Of a stretch of 64,000 bases of DNA, positions 34,199-42,603 are shown in pieces. Numbering within the stretch: the first letter of the stretch is position 1; every line of letters begins with the position of its first letter. Source of the DNA: an uncultured Alphaproteobacteria bacterium (GTDB lineage Bacteria; Pseudomonadota; Alphaproteobacteria; UBA828); contig CAJXFT010000001.1 of NCBI GenBank assembly GCA_913053235.1, positions 2,785 to 66,784 of the forward strand, read 5' to 3'. Below the pieces are notes generated by a model. That model was not told the origin of the DNA. It worked only from the letters and a program-made list of their open reading frames with translations, and ran no database searches. The position numbers and the translations under genes are program-made.

Positions 34199-35055
34199 GC
34201 CGCGCGCCCGGAGCGAATCGAAAGGGTTTCCAACATGACGAAATGGCGGAGCAGCGCGCCTGCAATCAGGCCGGCCACGGGCACGGCGATCATCATCGAG
34301 ATCAAGCGGCGCAATCTGACCGAGCCGTCATAGTAGCTCGGATTTCTCACCGCCTTCAGCCGCTCCAGGGTCAAATCCTGGCAGCTGCCGATATGCCTTT
34401 TGAGGGCGCGGCGATGGAACCACGGCCAGCGCAAGTGGAGATGATCGGGAATGGGCGCGCCGATCATGCGGCCCAGGGCGCGATGCAGCGGCTTTGGAAA
34501 ATAGTGAATCAACCATGCCCGCGTGTGCGAATCATAGGGGGTCAGGCGGTGCGGAATCTGGTGAATGGCCCAGCCGGTCGCCTTTAGGACCCGGCGCTCC
34601 TCGCCAAAATAGGAATCAATGGCGGCATCATCGACATGTTCCAAAACCTGCTGACTGAACACGATATCGATGCAGCCGTCGGGCAGCGCTATGGTTTTCC
34701 CGTCATCGATTGTGAAGCGCGGCGATGGGTGGTGCAGGATTTCCGTCGTGATGCGGTTCTGCATGCCGAGGTCACCGCCGACATCGACGCCGTAAATATT
34801 CGTATAGCCGCGCGCCGCGAGATAGAGCAGCGTCAAGCCGTTGCCGCAGCCATGGTCGAGAATGGCAATTTCACGCCTCTGCCGCGCGCCGCGATATTGC
34901 TCGATCCTGTTCAGTAATATCGCCAGGTGATAGGGCGGCGCATCGGCCGTTCGCTGCACCGTCTGGCAAAATTCCCCCCAGGTCTCGGTGATCGGCCCAC
35001 CGCCCACCTCGCGCAACTTACTGTTGGCCGCTTTGATCTCGGGCCAACTCATCAA
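34195..35055 (-). CDS. Class I SAM-dependent methyltransferase
   Basis: ILDHGCGNGLTLLYLA motif I. 4-nt overlap with the DUF924 gene. Confidence 0.7.
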   Translation of the reverse strand: MMSWPEIKAANSKLREVGGGPITETWGEFCQTVQRTADAPPYHLAILLNRIEQYRGARQRREIAILDHGCGNGLTLLYLAARGYTNIYGVDVGGDLGMQNRITTEILHHPSPRFTIDDGKTIALPDGCIDIVFSQQVLEHVDDAAIDSYFGEERRVLKATGWAIHQIPHRLTPYDSHTRAWLIHYFPKPLHRALGRMIGAPIPDHLHLRWPWFHRRALKRHIGSCQDLTLERLKAVRNPSYYDGSVRLRRLISMMIAVPVAGLIAGALLRHFVMLETLSIRSGRAA

Positions 35056-35099
35056 CGCCGCCCCATTGCACCGGTGGACGGATCGGAAGCGGGTGTGAT

Positions 35100-36134
35100 A
35101 TGAGCGCGGCCATGGCCGGCAACGACAAAAGATTCAGTGGCAAGCGCGTCTTGGTCACCGGCGCCGATGGATTCATCGGCTCGCATCTGGCCGAGGCGCT
35201 GGTGCGGGGCGGCGCCGAGGTGACGGCGCTGGCGCTTTACAATTCCTTCGGCAGCCACGGCTGGCTCGACGAAAGCGCCGACGAGATACGCGCCCAGATG
35301 CGCATCGAGCTCGGCGACGTGCGCGACGGCGCGCAGATGCGCGCCCTCGCCGAAGGCAGCGAAATCGTCTTTCACCTGGCCGCCCTGATCGGCATTCCCT
35401 ATTCCTATGTGGCGGCGCAATCCTGCGTCGATGTCAACATCCACGGCACCCTCAATCTCCTCGAGGCGGCGCGCGCCGGAGCTGTCGGGCGCTTCGTGCA
35501 CACCTCGACGAGCGAGGTCTACGGCTCCGCCCGAACCAAGCCGATCGGCGAGGACCATGCGCTGCACGGCCAATCGCCCTATGCCGCGAGCAAGATCGGC
35601 GCCGACCAGATGGTCGAGGCGTTTGCCCTGTCGCACGGCACGCCCGCCGTCACGCTCCGGCCGTTCAACACCTTCGGGCCGCGCCAGAGCGAGCGCGCCG
35701 TCATCCCCACCGCGATCCGCCAAATGCTCGATCCGGCCTGCGCCGAAATCCGCCTCGGCGATTTGAGCACGACGCGGGATTTCACTTTCGTCGCCGACAC
35801 GGTGCGCGCCTTCCTCGCCCTCGGCGCCGCGCCGGAGGCCGAATTCGGCACCGTCTACAATGCCGGAACCGGCGTCGAGACCGCGATTGGCGACGTGATT
35901 TCGCGGCTCGGCGAGATCACCGGCAACAACAAGCCCACCGTCAGCGACGAAGCGCGTCTGCGCCCCGAGCATTCGGAGGTGCGCGCCCTGGTCGCCGATG
36001 CGGCGCGCCTGACGGCGCTCACGGGCTGGCGCCCGGAGACGGCGCTCGGCGACGGCCTCGGCCAGTGCGTCGAGTGGTGGCGCCAGCGCATCGCCGGCGG
36101 CCGGCAGCGCCGCGATAGCGGCTACGCGCGCTAA
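35100..36134 (+). CDS. NAD-dependent epimerase/dehydratase (extended SDR; UDP-glucuronate decarboxylase / 4,6-dehydratase-like)
   Basis: KRVLVTGADGFIGSHL Rossmann motif and YAASKIGADQM (YxxxK). The antisense ORF 35052..36143 is junk. Confidence 0.8.
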   Translation: MSAAMAGNDKRFSGKRVLVTGADGFIGSHLAEALVRGGAEVTALALYNSFGSHGWLDESADEIRAQMRIELGDVRDGAQMRALAEGSEIVFHLAALIGIPYSYVAAQSCVDVNIHGTLNLLEAARAGAVGRFVHTSTSEVYGSARTKPIGEDHALHGQSPYAASKIGADQMVEAFALSHGTPAVTLRPFNTFGPRQSERAVIPTAIRQMLDPACAEIRLGDLSTTRDFTFVADTVRAFLALGAAPEAEFGTVYNAGTGVETAIGDVISRLGEITGNNKPTVSDEARLRPEHSEVRALVADAARLTALTGWRPETALGDGLGQCVEWWRQRIAGGRQRRDSGYAR

Positions 36135-36139
36135 CCCGC

Positions 36140-37081
36140 TCATTTCCGGCGCTTCCCGGCGGCGCCGCGCGGCGACGCCTGTGTTTCGTCGCTGAGATAG
36201 GCGCTTTCGCCGGCGCCGAGCGAATGCAGATAGCTGCCGTACTCGCTGCCTTTCATCCGCTGCGCCAGGGCGGCGAGTTGTCGGTCGTCGATCAGGCCGC
36301 GGCGAAAGGCGATTTCCTCGGGACAGGAGATCTTGAGCCCTTGGCGCTTTTCCACGGTGGCGACGAAATTGCCGGCCTCGAGCAGCGACTCATGGGTGCC
36401 CATATCGAGCCAGGCGGTGCCGCGGCCAAGCAGCTGGACGCGCAATCCACCCTCTTCGAGATAGGCCTGGTTGACGCTGGTGATCTCCAATTCGCCGCGC
36501 CCCGAGGGTGCTATGCCGCGCACCATGTCGCACACCCGGCCATCGTAATAGTAAAGTCCGGTCACGGCGTAGGACGAGCGCGGCGCCGCCGGCTTTTCCT
36601 CGATGCTCACGACGCTGCCGTCGGCGGCGAACTCGACGACGCCATAGTCTTGCGGCTTGTTGACGTAATAGGCGAACAGGCTGGCGGTGGCGGATTCCAT
36701 GCGCGCGGCCTGGCGCAGCATGCGGCCAAGGCCTTCGCCGTAGAAAATATTGTCGCCCAGAATGAGAGCCACGGGATCGCCAGCGATGAACGCCTCGCCG
36801 ATGACGAAGGCTTCGGCGATGCCGCGCGGCGAAGCTTGCGTCTCGTAGCTGAGCGAGATTCCCCATTTCGCGCCGTCGCCGAGCAAAGTCTCGAACAAAG
36901 GCCGGTCCTCGGGCCGGGTGATGATCAGAATTTCCGCGATATCGGCCAGCATCAGGGTGCTTAAGGGGTAATAGATCATCGGCTTGTCATAGACCGGCAG
37001 CAGCTGCTTGCTGACGCTCAGCGTCGTCGGCGCCAGGCGGGTACCGCTGCCGCCGGCGAGTATGATGCCCTTGCGAATCAT
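36140..37081 (-). CDS. rmlA: Glucose-1-phosphate thymidylyltransferase
   Basis: [46 protein letters not shown] is near-identical in pattern to RmlA. ATG at 37081 overlaps the rmlB stop. Confidence 0.9.
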
Positions 37082-38208
37082 CGGCGTCCGCCGACCTTCG
37101 CGTCCTGGCCGCCATCGGCCCGGCCGCTCAGGCCGAGGCGCTGGCCGCGATAGCTGCCGTCGCGCACCCGTTTGCACCAGCCTTCATTGTCGAGATACCA
37201 GCGCACGGTTTTTTCCAACCCGCTGGCGAAACTCTCGGCCGGGCGCCAATCGAGCTCGGCGGCGATGCTGTCGATCTCTATGGCGTAGCGCCGGTCATGG
37301 CCGGGCCGGTCTTCGACGAAGGCGATGAGATCGCGGTGGCGACTCGCGCCGGCGCCCGGCGCCAGGCGATCGAGGATATCGCAAATCGCTTCGACGACGT
37401 CGATATTCGCCCGCTCGGCGGCGCCGCCGATGCAATAGGTGCGCCCCGGCACGCCGGCGCTCAAGACCCGGCGCAGCGCACGCGCATGATCTTCGACATG
37501 GAGCCAGTCGCGCACCTGGCGGCCGTCGCCATAGATCGGTAGCGGCTTGCCCTCGAGGGCGTTCAGGATAGATAGCGGAATCAGCTTTTCGGGGAACTGG
37601 CAGGGCCCGTAATTGTTGCTGCAATTGGTGGTCAGCACCGGCAGGTCGAAGCTCTGCTGCCAGGCACGGGCGAGATGGTCGGCCGCCGCCTTGCTGGCGG
37701 CATAGGGCGAGTTGGGGCGGTAGGGATGGCCGGCGGCGAAGGGCGGCGCATCCGGCTCAAGCGCGCCGTAAACCTCGTCGGTCGAGACCTGGAGAAAGCG
37801 GAAGCCGCCTTCGCCGAGCGCGCGGCCAGGATCGGAGACATGCCGCGCGCAATATCCGCGCGCGGCCTCAAGAAGAGTGTAGCTACCGAGGATATTGGTT
37901 TCGATGAACGGCGCCGGGCCGTCGATCGAGCGGTCGACATGGGATTCGGCGGCGAGATGCATAATCGCGTCGGGCCGATAATTCTCGAACAGGCGCGCCA
38001 TCGCTTCCGCGTCGCACACATCCGCCTGCTCGAAACGGTAATTGGCGGCAGCCGCCGCATCGCCGAGCGATTCGAGATTTCCGGCATAGGTCAGCTTGTC
38101 GATATTGACCACCAGATGTTCGCTCTCGGCGACCAATTGGCGGACCACGGCCGAGCCGATAAAACCGGCGCCGCCGGTGACCAGTATCGTCCATTGCGCG
38201 GCGTTCAT
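37078..38208 (-). CDS. rmlB: dTDP-glucose 4,6-dehydratase
   Basis: [16 protein letters not shown]...[10 protein letters not shown]...STDEVYG...[11 protein letters not shown] are the RmlB hallmarks. Confidence 0.9.
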
Positions 38209-38825
38209 TGCCCACTCTCCGGCGATCGCTCGACGTGAAGCAGATGCGGCGTCAACACGCGCGCCGGCGGCAGGCTTCGGATGAGATCGTCATAGACCGC
38301 CTGCGGCGCGTCGAGGGCGGTGAGGATGACGGCGTCGGGGCGGTCGAGCGCGCCGATCGAGGCGACGACCGGCAAGCCCAACAGTGTCTCGCCATGGCGC
38401 CCGCCATCGATCACGCCGAGCAGGACGACATCATGTTCGCGCGCCGAGAGAATGGCGATCTCGGCCAGCTCGCCGGCGCCGGCGAGGGCCAGATGGCGCC
38501 AGCCGGCGGCGCTGCATTGCTCGTATATCGAAGTATATTGCACCCGCGAGCGGCGGAAGAAGGTCAGCGAATCGGAAAGAAATTCGGCGGTCAGGCGGGT
38601 TTTTTCGGTAAACCCCTGCGGCGTCAGATAGTAGGCGTAGCGATTGGGCGGAATCTCGCTGATTTTGATCAGCCCCTTGCGCACGCAGCGCTTGACATAA
38701 CTGTTGGTCATGCCGAGCGCGATGCCCAGTTCCTTGGCCAAAGTGCGCTGATTGACATGCTCCGATTCGCCGACGCGGACCAGAATGTCGCGGATGATGG
38801 CGTCGTCGCGCGCTTTGCGGGTCAT
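38205..38825 (-). CDS. Winged helix-turn-helix transcriptional regulator (MarR-like N-terminal domain + uncharacterised C-terminal domain)
   Basis: [31 protein letters not shown] is an HTH. Divergent to the phosphonate operon. Confidence 0.65.
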
Positions 38826-39200
38826 CCGGCGATCCCGCCAAACAAAATGCGCGGCGGCCCCGGGCGATTCCGCATATTGGCAATTAACATGTTGATATAA
38901 TGTAGAATTTTGAGACGCTACCGCCGTTCCGGGTGCAAGGCTGCGGCCCGGTCGGCGGTGAATCGCGAATCCGCGAATCGGGCCTTACGATGCCCCGGCG
39001 GAACCTGATATGTTATATGTTCAAACTTTGAACAGTGTTGCTCCGCCTATCGTTCACGAATTGAACGCCGAATCAAGGGCTTTGTTCATTTTTTGAACGC
39101 GGGGGCATGTTCGGCGCCCGGCGATTCCACGGGCATTTTCTCGCCACTTTCGGCATGCTACGATTCGCAAAATCGGGCCAAAACGGAAAACGGGCGGGTC
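38826..39200. promoter_or_regulatory. Divergent regulatory region with an extended -10 promoter and three GTTCA-N-TGAAC inverted repeats
   Basis: TGATATAAT at ~38893-38901. Palindromes: tgttcaaactttgaaca at 39018-39034, cgttcacgaattgaacg at 39051-39067 and gttcattttttgaac at 39084-39098, with centres ~32-33 bp apart. Confidence 0.5.
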
Positions 39201-40871
39201 ATGGCGACAAAATTGGACGGCGCGCCGGCGAGCCGGGCGCCGCGCTCCAAGGCGGAAATGCTGAAAGCTGCGCTCCTCAAGGCCGAGCTGGCCTTTGTCA
39301 TGGAGGCGCATAACGGTCTTTCGGCGAAAGTCGTCGAGGAGGCCGGGTTCGAGGGCATTTGGGCCTCCGGGCTGGCGATGTCGGCGGCCTTGGGCGTGCG
39401 CGACAACAACGAAGCCTCGTGGACCCAGGTGCTCGAACAGCTCGAATTCATGGCCGACGCCACCAGCATTCCGATTCTGGTCGACGGCGATACCGGCTAC
39501 GGCAATTTCAACAATGTGCGCCGGCTGGTGAAGAAGCTGTGCCAGCGCGGCGTCGCCGGGGTGTGCATCGAGGACAAGCTGTTTCCGAAGACCAATTCCT
39601 TCATCGGCGAGGGCCAGCCGCTCGCCGATATGGAGGAGTTTTCGGGCCGCATCAAGGCCGGCAAGGACAGCCAGGAGGACGAGGATTTCCAGCTCATCGC
39701 CCGCGTCGAAGCGCTGATATCGGGCCTCGGCATGGCTGAGGCTTTGCGCCGCGCCGAGGCCTATCACAGCGCCGGCGCCGACGGAATTTTGATACATTCG
39801 AAGAAGGCCGACGCCGAAGAGATCCTCACCTTCAGCCGCGAATGGGCCGGGCGCGCGCCCCTCGTGATCGTGCCGACGATGTATTACGCCACCCCGACCG
39901 ACGCTTTCCGCGATGCCGGCGTGTCGCTGGTGATCTGGGCCAACCATAACTTACGCGCCGCCTTGAGCGCGATGCGCGAGACCAGCCGGCGCATCATGGA
40001 GGAGCAGTCGCTGACCTCGGTCGAAGGCGAGGTCGCCGGCGTCAAGGAGATCTTCGACATCGTCGGGCAGGGCGAGCTGGCGGCGGCCGAGGCGCGCTAC
40101 CTCAAACCCAAGGGCGGCGATTACAAGGCCATCATACTCGCCGCGTCGCGCGGCTCGGCGCTCGGGCCGCTCACCGAACGGCTGCCCAAATGCATGCTCG
40201 ACATCCGCGGCCAGCCGCTGCTCAAGCGCCTGATGACGACGCTGGCTGAGGGCGGTTTGCGCGACATCAGCGTGGTGCGCGGCTACGCCAAGGAAATGAT
40301 CGATCTCGCCAATCTGCGCGTCATCGACAATGACGCCTTCGCCGACAATAGCGAAGCGGCGTCGCTCGCCTGCGCCGCCGCCGAGCTCGATGGCGCCTGC
40401 GTTGTCTCATACGGCGATATCCTGTTCCGGCCCTATATTCTGGAAAATTTGCTCGCCTCGTCCGGCGATATCAGCGCCGTGATCGACGCCCGCTGGCGCG
40501 GCACCGGCCACCGCGCGGCCGAGCGCAAGGTCGATCTCGCACGCTGCAGCCGCGCCTTCACCGGCGATTATCTCGACGAGGAACCGGTATGGCTGGAGGC
40601 CATCGAATCGGCTGCCGGAGAAGGCGGCGAGAGCGACGCGCCGGACGGCGAATTCATCGGCCTGATCAAATTGAGCGCCGCCGGCGCGCACGCGGTGCGC
40701 CGCGAATTGCAGGCGATGGAGGCCGAGGGGGTGCTCGATGAGGCCGATCTGCCGGCGCTCTTAAACCGGCTGATCGCGCGCGGCGAGAAGATCGAAGCGC
40801 TCTATGTGACCGGGCATTGGCTCGATGTCGATGATGCTTTCGATCTCGCCAAGGCGCGCAATCTCGTGTGA
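39201..40871 (+). CDS. pepM: Phosphoenolpyruvate mutase fused to a C-terminal nucleotidyltransferase (phosphonate cytidylyltransferase-like)
   Basis: [47 protein letters not shown] is the PEP-mutase signature. The C-terminal ~230 aa ([32 protein letters not shown]) form a nucleotidyltransferase fold. Start ATG at 39201. Confidence 0.85.
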
Positions 40872-40878
40872 TACCAAG

Positions 40879-42015
40879 ATGATCGCGGCGGATGATTTTC
40901 TCGCGCCGGCGCGGGCGCTCGGATTTGATTTCTATTCCGGCGTCCCGTGCTCCTTTCTGGCGCCGCTGATCAACCGCGTGATTTCCGACCCCGGGCTTGA
41001 CTATGTCGGCGCCACCAGCGAGGGCGAAGCGCTGGCGATCGCCGCCGGCGCCTGGCTGGCCGGGCGCAAGTCGGTGGTGATGTGCCAGAACTCGGGCCTC
41101 GGCAACACCGTCAACCCGCTGACTTCGCTCAATTACCCGTTCCGCATCCCGACCCTGTTGATCGTCACCTGGCGCGGCCAGCCCGGCCTCGAGGACGAGC
41201 CGCAACATGAATTGATGGGCCAGATCACGGCTGAGCTGCTCGATGTCATGCAGGTGCCGCACGCGCCTTTCCCGAGCGACGAATCGGGCGTCGCGGAGGT
41301 GCTGGAGAAGGCCTACAAAAGCATGGCGATAAGCGGCCTTCCCTTCGCCCTCATCATGGCCAAGGGCGCGGTGGCGGCCGAGACGCTCGACCCACCGCCG
41401 CCGCCGCCGTCGCCGGCCGGCGATTTGCACGACCGCTCAAGCGGCGGAGAGCGCCCGGCCCGCGCCGAGGCGCTGCAAACCCTGCTCGCCGTGACGCCCG
41501 GCGATGCCGCCATCATCGCCACCACCGGAAAGACCGGGCGCGAATTGTTCACCCTGGCGGACCGCCGCCAGCAGCTCTATCAGGTCGGCTCGATGGGCTG
41601 CGCCGGGGCCATGGGATTGGGCGTCGCGCTCAATGTGAAACGCCCGGTCATCGTCATCGACGGCGATGGCGCGGCGCTGATGAAGCTCGGCGCGCTGGCC
41701 ACCATCGGCGCCCATGCGCCGGACAATCTCCTGCATCTGATTCTCGACAATGGCGTGCATGATTCGACCGGCGGCCAGGCCACGGTGTCGCCCGGCGTCT
41801 CGTTCGCCGGCGCGGCGCGGGCGTGCGGCTACCGGTCCAGTCATGTTTGCGATTCGCTGGACGGTTTCGCAGTCGCACTGGAAGAAGGGTTGGCCGGTGC
41901 CAAGCCGTGCCTGATCCATCTGCGCACCGCGCCGGGCTCGCTCAGCCCGTTGGGACGGCCGACGCTGGCGCCTTCCCAGGTGGCGCGGCGTTTTCGCGAC
42001 TTCCTCGCCTCGTAA
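40879..42015 (+). CDS. ppd: Phosphonopyruvate decarboxylase (TPP-dependent)
   Basis: Two-domain TPP enzyme with the Mg/TPP motif GDGAALMKLGALATIG...N. Immediately follows PEP mutase, as in phosphonate pathways. Confidence 0.8.
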   Translation: MIAADDFLAPARALGFDFYSGVPCSFLAPLINRVISDPGLDYVGATSEGEALAIAAGAWLAGRKSVVMCQNSGLGNTVNPLTSLNYPFRIPTLLIVTWRGQPGLEDEPQHELMGQITAELLDVMQVPHAPFPSDESGVAEVLEKAYKSMAISGLPFALIMAKGAVAAETLDPPPPPPSPAGDLHDRSSGGERPARAEALQTLLAVTPGDAAIIATTGKTGRELFTLADRRQQLYQVGSMGCAGAMGLGVALNVKRPVIVIDGDGAALMKLGALATIGAHAPDNLLHLILDNGVHDSTGGQATVSPGVSFAGAARACGYRSSHVCDSLDGFAVALEEGLAGAKPCLIHLRTAPGSLSPLGRPTLAPSQVARRFRDFLAS

Positions 42016-42026
42016 TGTCCGTGCCG

Positions 42027-42524
42027 TCAGATCGGCTCGACATCGCCGCCGGCGACGGAAACGCGCACCTCGCGGCCCATCAGTTTCAGCAGGATCAAAA
42101 CCCGGTCGGAATCGAGCTCGGCCTCGAAGATGCCCTCCAGATCGGCCATCGGCCCGCCCTGGACGCGCACGCTATCGCCGGGTTTGATGGCGCGCCGCGC
42201 GATCTCGAAAACGCCGTCGGCGCCGGCCCGGGCTCTCAGCGCCTCGATGATATCGCCGCCGATGGCGAGCGGGCCGTCGGCCCCCGAAACCATGGTGTGG
42301 ACGCCATAGGTCGAGAGTATGGGCCGCCAGGTCTGGCTCGAGAGGTCGAGCCGGACGAACAGATAGCGCGGGAAAAGCGGCCGCGGAACGCTTTCGACCC
42401 GGCGTGCATGGCGCCGCGTCTTGTGGTACATCGGCAGCCAGACCTCATAGTTCTGACGCACCAAATTGGTCTCGGCCCGTTGCTCCGAGTTGACCCGGCA
42501 ATGGACCACATACCATTGTCTCAT
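42027..42524 (-). CDS. NusG/RfaH-family transcription antiterminator paralog (NGN + KOW)
   Basis: MRQWYVVHCRVNSEQRAETNL NGN domain and a C-terminal KOW-like region. A stand-alone gene inside a polysaccharide island is typical of RfaH/LoaP-like specialised paralogs. Confidence 0.7.
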   Translation of the reverse strand: MRQWYVVHCRVNSEQRAETNLVRQNYEVWLPMYHKTRRHARRVESVPRPLFPRYLFVRLDLSSQTWRPILSTYGVHTMVSGADGPLAIGGDIIEALRARAGADGVFEIARRAIKPGDSVRVQGGPMADLEGIFEAELDSDRVLILLKLMGREVRVSVAGGDVEPI

Positions 42525-42603
42525 TTAACCTCTGAAGCGGTTTCCATTTCCAACGCGCCCTGATCCGAGTAGACTCCGCGCGTCGCGCAATCAAGTAAAA
42601 TTC

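Follow-up and report, generated by a model that had tools for sequence, protein, structure and literature searches.

Three phased palindromes and a hairpin-ops leader upstream of a winged-helix regulator gene in an alphaproteobacterial glycan and phosphonate locus

Introduction

In Bacteroides capsule loci, each glycan locus encodes at its 5' end a NusG paralogue, UpxY, together with a trans-inhibitor, UpxZ, which is not a DNA-binding winged helix-turn-helix (wHTH) protein and acts on UpxY. Repressors of the Rex family recognize the Rex box, TTGTGAA-N4-TTCACAA. In Enterobacteria, RfaH acts on long operons, such as those for lipopolysaccharide (LPS) and capsule, through the ops element; E. coli ops12 reads GGCGGTAGCGTG (PMC5995543). 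RfaH genes are also frequent in Alphaproteobacteria (PMC7593976). Here we describe, in a marine member of this class, a regulator gene whose upstream region combines phased palindromes with an ops-like element. The region studied is the intergenic segment 38826-39200 of a 64,000-nt stretch of DNA, hereafter the window, from an uncultured Alphaproteobacteria bacterium (UBA828; assembly GCA_913053235.1, contig CAJXFT010000001.1, positions 2,785-66,784, forward strand). All positions are in whole-window numbering.

A first reading of this region (the original prediction) correctly named the flanking genes, a wHTH regulator gene at 38205-38825 on the minus strand and a phosphoenolpyruvate (PEP) mutase gene, pepM, from 39201 on the plus strand. 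It missed an ops element, a leader hairpin and an RfaH-like gene, which together form the defining parts of the system. Taken as a whole, the locus is probably best explained by a regulator that represses its own operon through three operators, with control of elongation by ops and an RfaH-like protein.

Three exact palindromes upstream of the regulator gene

The intergenic region contains three exact GTTCA-N5-TGAAC palindromes, with centers at 39026, 39059 and 39091 (spacings of 33 and 32 bp).

39019-39033, no strand: putative operator site 1, core GTTCAaacttTGAAC, within tGTTCAaacttTGAACa (39018-39034); at about +8 to +22 of the proposed regulator-operon promoter, and promoter-distal on the plus strand
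39052-39066, no strand: putative operator site 2, core GTTCAcgaatTGAAC, within cGTTCAcgaatTGAACg (39051-39067); fills the spacer and overlaps the proposed minus-strand -10
39084-39098, no strand: putative operator site 3, core GTTCAtttttTGAAC, within tGTTCAtttttTGAACg; 7 bp upstream of the -35-like hexamer, at about -57 to -43

A search of both strands of the window with 0 or 1 mismatch returned these three palindromes only. The expected numbers of matches are 0.04 (exact) and 0.65 (one mismatch), and none of 100 shuffles reached three; three such palindromes within 80 bp are far beyond chance. The inverted repeats of the original prediction, and their reported distance of 32-33 bp, are thus real, except that the spacers within the repeats, described there as variable, are five nucleotides long in all three sites.

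The motif follows the regulator gene across relatives

The motif was examined in 80 homologue loci, all from alphaproteobacterial metagenome-assembled genomes (one genome scanned per species; regulators 46-84% identical), with up to one mismatch allowed and "upstream" defined as within 400 bp of the regulator gene. Of the 80 loci, 79 have one to four sites upstream, and the remaining one has just 13 bp of sequence there. The upstream DNA (31.3 kb) holds 188 sites, 139 of them exact, compared to 28 sites, 4 of them exact, in the remaining 778 kb, a per-base enrichment of more than 100-fold. Flank preferences over the 80 loci widen the motif to YGTTCA-N5-TGAACR. The spacings between sites fall into two classes, 21-24 bp and 32-34 bp. 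The latter characterizes the clade closest to the window (loci L001-L011), and site 1 occupies an unchanged position in L001-L007.

A motif-first scan of metagenome contigs, using two sites 31-35 bp apart as the query, also returned 80 loci. A regulator homologue (30-80% identical), an RfaH-like gene, or both, stand beside the sites in 34 of these, and regulators only 30-45% identical were recovered in this way as well. Many of the contigs with no regulator or RfaH-like match are only 1-2 kb long.

Such co-occurrence is, at the level of sequence comparison, a standard and very strong phylogenetic footprint of an autoregulated factor and its operator: the conserved palindrome lies upstream of the regulator's own gene across orthologues and overlaps predicted core promoter elements. 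Within the regulator, the helix-turn-helix segment LGIALGxxNxYxKRCxxKG is nearly invariant across the family, matching the invariant half-site, which counts in favor of the regulator as the binder. The palindromes are thus very probably the cognate operators of the adjacent 206-aa regulator. These results support the idea of phased operators for a dimeric wHTH protein. The motif was also said not to match the Pho, CRP/FNR or NtcA consensus, and its motif strings indeed gave no relevant match in the literature searched. The alphaproteobacterial LexA box is a direct repeat, GTTC-N7-GTTC. LexA, FixK/FNR and CRP boxes were dropped as candidates because the motif is inverted rather than direct and tracks the regulator gene.

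Double GTTCA-N5-TGAAC matches with a palindromic spacer, CA(A/G)GCCCCGGGGGCTTG, occur in L116 (429-475) and L127 (82-128 and 178-224), with the unit repeated within one contig. Rather than an operator pair, they resemble a terminator-like element or an unrelated repeat.

An ops-like element, a leader hairpin and an RfaH-like gene

Between the palindromes and the regulator start codon lie two further elements on the regulator strand, and an RfaH-like gene is encoded on the same strand beyond pepM.

38914-38925, minus strand: ops-like element GGCGGTAGCGTC, on the regulator coding strand upstream of the regulator ATG
38929-38951, minus strand: leader hairpin CCGGG...CCCGG, ending 3-4 nt before the ops-like element
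42027-42524, minus strand: gene for an RfaH-like NusG paralogue of 165 aa (tblastn with the L081 paralogue, 1e-28)

In the intergenic alignment, which comprises the window and L001-L008, ACGCTACCGCC is invariant at 38915-38925 and corresponds to GGCGGTAGCGT(C) on the regulator strand. In all of L001-L011, GGCGGTAGCGT precedes the regulator ATG by 43-114 bp, with both on one strand. The window element agrees with E. coli ops12 at 11/12 positions, and those of L007 and L009-L011 at 12/12. Thus, a 12-nt ops-type sequence is present on the non-template strand of a 5' leader, as in RfaH systems. Another 24 loci carry an ops-like [G/T]GCGGTAGC[G/A/T]TG at +1132 to +1254, straight after the RfaH-like gene. 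No further convincing ops-like element was seen in the window.

Each of 38 ops-like elements found in related loci has a hairpin 3-5 nt upstream whose 3' arm reads (T)CACCCGG (TCACCCGG). The mean z-score is -1.9 relative to shuffled sequences (per-sequence folds with ViennaRNA), and the 5' arm varies between loci with complementarity retained. Per-sequence folds were used because RNAalifold on the automatic alignment, in which the hairpins are out of register, gave a poor consensus. An Rfam scan of 38700-39400 on both strands (E up to 1) detected zero RNA families, and a riboswitch leader was rejected on this basis.

The protein encoded at 42027-42524 has RfaH (TIGR01955) as its best family, with an E-value of 2.5e-38 and a score of 131.6 bits against a cut-off of 144.5. 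It also matches Pfam NusG (3.3e-23) and the UpxY model (9.4e-23). An open reading frame (ORF) on the plus strand at 41823-42563 was rejected as a gene, being a shadow frame over this one. The RfaH-like gene lies directly 3' of the regulator gene in 69/80 loci, with a 4-bp gene overlap in L081, and is usually translationally coupled to it. In the window clade, it is instead found upstream of the regulator gene, on the regulator strand and at a distance of 3-5 kb; the pair of pepM and ppd (the phosphonopyruvate decarboxylase gene) is interposed in the opposite orientation, which suggests an insertion or rearrangement. The RfaH-like protein is presumed to read the ops-like element.

Proposed promoter of the regulator operon

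Promoter assignments rest on conserved hexamers, since a consensus sigma-70 and terminator scan of 38700-39350 on both strands called nothing. Two hexamers face the regulator gene.

39071-39076, minus strand: putative -35, TTGATT, between sites 3 and 2; AATCAAG is invariant in the intergenic alignment
39049-39054, minus strand: putative weak -10, AACGAT, 16 bp from the -35 and overlapping a half-site of site 2

On the regulator strand, the window reads GTTCAaaaaaTGAAC-aaagccc-TTGATT-cggc-GTTCAattcgTGAAC-gatagg...-GTTCAaagttTGAAC. The segment TGAACGAT(A/G) is kept in L001-L006, and AACAAT stands at the equivalent place in L010, L011 and L076. The minus-strand start is predicted near 39041-39043.

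All 28 site pairs with 32-34 bp spacing, including some in L067, L070 and L076 that are remote from the regulator gene, have a TTGAC- or TTGAT-like hexamer in the inter-site spacer. The hexamer always faces an ops-like element, which lies 50-130 nt downstream. The original prediction had placed the array in the leader of pepM. The orientation of these hexamers places the sites better on the minus-strand promoter of the regulator.

The commonest layout among relatives is cTTGAC-[site]-n3-4-TAnnn-[site], with TTGAC abutting the first site in 56 of 79 such pairs. Here the first site, next to a consensus-like -35, occupies the spacer, and the second extends from the -10 over the start point; some relatives have an extra third site 21 bp upstream. 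As far as the predicted elements go, this tiling of a strong promoter is repressor geometry. In the window, too, the sites appear to sit on the regulator's own promoter in a geometry expected of an autorepressor, and the effect of the bound sites is rather likely to be repression.

A different arrangement is seen in seven loci from AT-rich lineages (L093, L094, L104, L110, L134, L138 and L151; regulators 30-40% identical). Their paired sites, 33-35 bp apart, flank a TATAAT-like element, not a -35, with ops 37-51 nt downstream. The sites and ops stand between the rfaH-like gene, which comes first, and the regulator gene.

Fold of the regulator

38205-38825, minus strand: regulator gene, 206 aa; wHTH at about residues 1-65, long helix at 69-106, Rossmann-like domain of the CoA-binding type at 108-200

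The regulator has 1835 homologues at E up to 1e-3, with full-length matches. Only HTH_24 passes its Pfam cut-off (2.5e-07), with MarR_2 at 18.1 (cut-off 27) and MarR at 16.1 (cut-off 24.6). The model TIGR04176, 'MarR family EPS-associated transcriptional regulator', matches residues 13-86 with 60.8 bits against a cut-off of 88 (E 1.1e-16). The earlier description of the protein as a MarR-like wHTH regulator therefore holds for the wHTH and not for a canonical MarR protein, as the score is below the MarR_EPS cut-off and there is an extra Rossmann-like domain.

The AlphaFold model, built from a 78-sequence alignment, is confident (pLDDT 86.5) and consists of a winged helix, a long helix and a compact Rossmann-like domain. 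The best whole-chain matches in the PDB, obtained with Foldseek, are Rex-family repressors (3wg9, E 1.1e-03, TM ~0.33), followed by O-methyltransferases containing a wHTH; the alpha subunit of succinyl-CoA synthetase is a further structural likeness. The regulator shares with Rex the succession of a wHTH and a Rossmann-like domain in ~210 aa. The Rex domain (PF06971) was not listed in a Pfam scan of the regulator and 77 relatives with E up to 1, and CoA_binding (PF02629) was hit by one of the 78 alignment members (E 0.046), not by the window protein. A profile search of PDB sequences likewise did not list Rex and gave only marginal Rossmann hits with E of at least 0.012. The GxGxxG-like motif reads A-G116-x-(G/S)-(E/D)-L-(A/G), with G116 as the sole invariant glycine. 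Judging from the model, the regulator has a Rex-like architecture without demonstrable membership of the Rex family, and the nearest structural counterpart of its modeled Rossmann-like domain is the accessory domain of WbpM/PglF-type sugar-nucleotide enzymes.

Candidate promoters of the divergent pepM gene

Two plus-strand elements could serve as promoters for pepM.

39156-39164, plus strand: candidate pepM extended -10, TGcTACGAT; TGnTACGnT is kept in L001-L007, with no recognizable -35
38883-38903, no strand: AT-rich block aTTAACATgTTGATATAAT, containing on the plus strand a perfect extended -10, TGaTATAAT, at 38893-38901

The AT-rich block is conserved in L001-L006 and not in L007-L011, and lies downstream of ops in the regulator leader. 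On the minus strand, it fits the IHF-type pattern TATCAAnnnnTTA. The original prediction had noted its extended -10 between the regulator gene and the phosphonate operon. The element is present and conserved in close relatives, but a role as the pepM promoter is not supported, given that it is 300 nt away and inside the regulator leader. TGcTACGAT is more likely to be the pepM promoter, which would put the start near 39169-39172, with a leader of ~30 nt.

No operator site overlaps this candidate core promoter; site 3 is at about -80 relative to the candidate start. In the window and seven relatives, the center of site 3 lies 66-68 bp from the candidate pepM -10, even though the DNA in between has diverged. 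L003 (79 bp) and L150 (101 bp) depart from this distance by +11 and +33, differences that keep the helical phase. The linkage to pepM is kept in every closest-clade locus that reaches the gene (L001-L009, L011, L114 and L150) and is confined to this clade; L010 has none of the window's flanking genes. The spacing is suggestive (roughly p = 0.07) of an additional action of the array on pepM, of either sign.

Neighboring genes

The regulator gene is followed on the minus strand by two genes, its probable operon partners, and faced by a convergent one; pepM and ppd diverge from it.

37078-38208, minus strand: rmlB (TIGR01181, 5.7e-135), downstream of the regulator
36140-37177, minus strand: rmlA (TIGR01207, 5.8e-135), downstream of the regulator
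35100-36134, plus strand: LegB-like NAD-dependent 4,6-dehydratase, 344 aa (TIGR04180, 1.8e-116)
39201-40871, plus strand: pepM, PEP mutase fused to a nucleotidyltransferase (TIGR02320, 3.6e-116; NTP_transf_3)
40825-42015, plus strand: ppd, phosphonopyruvate decarboxylase (TIGR03297, 1.8e-123)

A 363-aa ORF at 35052-36143 on the minus strand, which has no family match, is a shadow frame of the dehydratase gene; the regulator-rmlB-rmlA unit therefore ends against a convergent gene. Beyond ppd, the plus strand encodes a flippase-like membrane protein and methyltransferase/glycosyltransferase genes. The fusion in pepM suggests that the phosphonate may be converted to an activated nucleotide conjugate before its transfer to a glycan or lipid. 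Its nucleotidyltransferase domain (residues ~309-433) is MobA-like or of the sugar-phosphate type. No aminotransferase was identified among the ORFs examined. The neighbors of other family members are unrelated to those in the window and are typically glycosyltransferase, WbpM-like and sugar-nucleotide genes.

Proposed mechanism and alternative explanations

We propose that a regulator dimer would bind at each site, with cooperation along one face of the helix, and that occupied sites 1-3 would block initiation at the regulator-rmlB-rmlA promoter. By analogy, a small ligand or metabolite sensed by the Rossmann-like domain may relieve this autorepression. Transcripts that have started would pause at the hairpin-ops composite and load the RfaH-like protein, a step we infer from the sequence identity between the element and ops. 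Control of initiation and control of elongation would in this way be combined in one leader. The array, in helical phase ~80 bp upstream of the divergent pepM promoter, may also modulate pepM.

Several points weigh against this proposal. Position 12 of the window ops element is C, not G; in E. coli, the G12C substitution abolishes the pause and keeps RfaH recruitment (PMC5995543). The TTGATT and AACGAT hexamers agree with the consensus at 7/12 positions and were not called by the consensus scan, and the layout with 32-34 bp spacing leaves the -35 uncovered between sites, which would also suit an activator. A nucleotide ligand is not assured, because the GxGxxG-like motif is only partly conserved. 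In five relatives (L001, L006, L007, L009 and L011), the regulator gene is apparently monocistronic, with a convergent dehydratase gene downstream, and there an anti-termination signal would have no evident purpose. Experiments on DNA binding, transcription starts or expression were not found in the literature searched for any protein of the family.

One may ask whether the array mainly controls the divergent pepM-ppd pair, either as an upstream activator site or as a roadblock in a long leader that starts from TGaTATAAT (38893-38901). This is possible, though unlikely. The absence of a recognizable -35 next to TGcTACGAT is typical of activator-dependent promoters, and the preserved distance and phase between site 3 and this -10, the perfect extended -10 within the AT-rich block and the retention of pepM in all sufficiently long closest-clade loci point in the same direction. 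However, ~70 other loci keep the sites with unrelated neighbors and no pepM, so that what is conserved as a target is the promoter of the regulator itself. The TTGATT hexamer faces away from pepM, whose candidate core promoter is free of sites. The AT-rich block is missing from L007-L011 and has its alternative, IHF-type reading on the other strand, and the phase argument amounts to two indels. A further alternative keeps the target and changes the sign: the regulator would be an activator or a dual-function protein at an ops-type promoter, with dimers at about -50 and -18 placed on the helix face opposite the exposed -35 and aiding RNA polymerase at the weak -10, and the tightly tiled form with 22-bp spacing in other lineages would be the autorepressing one. 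The uncovered hexamer midway in 28/28 pairs spaced 32-34 bp, the weak predicted -10 (AACGAT or AACAAT) and the existence of two spacing classes are consistent with activation. We nevertheless consider it rather improbable, as two of the sites lie where repressors typically bind, namely over the beginning of the predicted -10 (site 2) and early in the transcribed region (site 1). Repression is also the usual mode of action among wHTH/MarR-type and Rex regulators.

It is very improbable that some other protein binds the palindromes, or that they arose by chance or as a structural feature in an AT-richer spacer. The RfaH-like gene does co-occur with the sites almost as often as the regulator gene, but RfaH-type proteins recognize the non-template strand in single-stranded form and not 15-bp palindromes in double-stranded DNA (PMC5995543). 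Moreover, the motif is enriched more than 100-fold per base upstream of the regulator gene, the Rfam scan gave no match, and the motif follows the regulator even where the RfaH-like gene is several kb away (L001-L011). Autorepression by the adjacent regulator, coupled to ops-dependent elongation control, remains the explanation that we favor.

More speculatively, the regulator and the RfaH-like gene could form a widespread two-gene module (at least 1,800 regulator homologues) for two-level control of surface-glycan loci in marine and soil Alphaproteobacteria, here including a phosphonate-tailoring operon. Operators of a Rex-like sensor would bracket the promoter, and the hairpin-ops leader would load the RfaH-like antiterminator. 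The ligand of the Rossmann-like domain would be a nucleotide-sugar, CoA or redox metabolite, and glycan expression would thereby be tied to precursor supply, with the regulator's own promoter repressed and phase-aligned divergent promoters, such as that of pepM, perhaps activated. We regard this broader picture as tentative.

Significance

The analysis provides a precise operator, YGTTCA-N5-TGAACR, and a promoter architecture for a large uncharacterized regulator family, and connects the family with RfaH-type anti-termination in a lineage other than Enterobacteria. It also gives a starting point for understanding the switching of surface polysaccharides and their phosphonate decoration in abundant, mostly uncultured marine Alphaproteobacteria, traits that matter for interactions with phages and grazers and for the marine phosphonate cycle. 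The ops sequence is kept almost base for base in a distant lineage, always paired with a hairpin, which bears on the question of how NusG paralogues are targeted.

Comparison with known systems

The regulator shares the combination of a wHTH and a Rossmann-like domain with the Rex proteins of T. aquaticus, B. subtilis and S. agalactiae and with RSP. It differs from them in having no detectable Rex sequence homology, a whole-chain TM of only ~0.33 and a degenerate glycine motif. Its operator is YGTTCA-N5-TGAACR and not the Rex box, and its genomic context consists of polysaccharide loci with RfaH rather than respiratory or fermentation genes. The MarR-type proteins described by TIGR04176 resemble it in the N-terminal wHTH, the association with exopolysaccharide-type clusters and the palindromic autoregulatory operators. 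However, the regulator is twice the length of this 105-position single-domain model and has an extra Rossmann-like domain. No experimental work on TIGR04176 proteins was found in the literature searched.

The leader resembles the RfaH/ops/JUMPStart systems of enterobacterial LPS, capsule and other long operons in having ops on the non-template strand of the 5' leader of a glycan locus and an RfaH-like paralogue nearby. Unlike in Enterobacteria, the RfaH-like gene usually has a translationally coupled partner, the gene of a dedicated DNA-binding regulator, and the operators of this regulator lie on either side of the promoter for the ops-containing transcript. In addition, a hairpin precedes every ops element, and the paralogue scores just under the RfaH equivalog cut-off. 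Literature searches for RfaH in Rhodospirillales or together with MarR gave no relevant match. The UpxY/UpxZ pairs of Bacteroides embody the same concept, but the partner here is a predicted operator-binding repressor, and both the lineage and the recruitment signal differ.

An autoregulated wHTH regulator with phased palindromic operators, and RfaH acting with ops, are each familiar. Neither the family nor its operator was found in the literature searched, and both are counted as new. New as well are the Rex-like build and the fact that, in glycan and phosphonate loci, such a regulator is conserved together with an RfaH-like gene and a leader carrying hairpin and ops.

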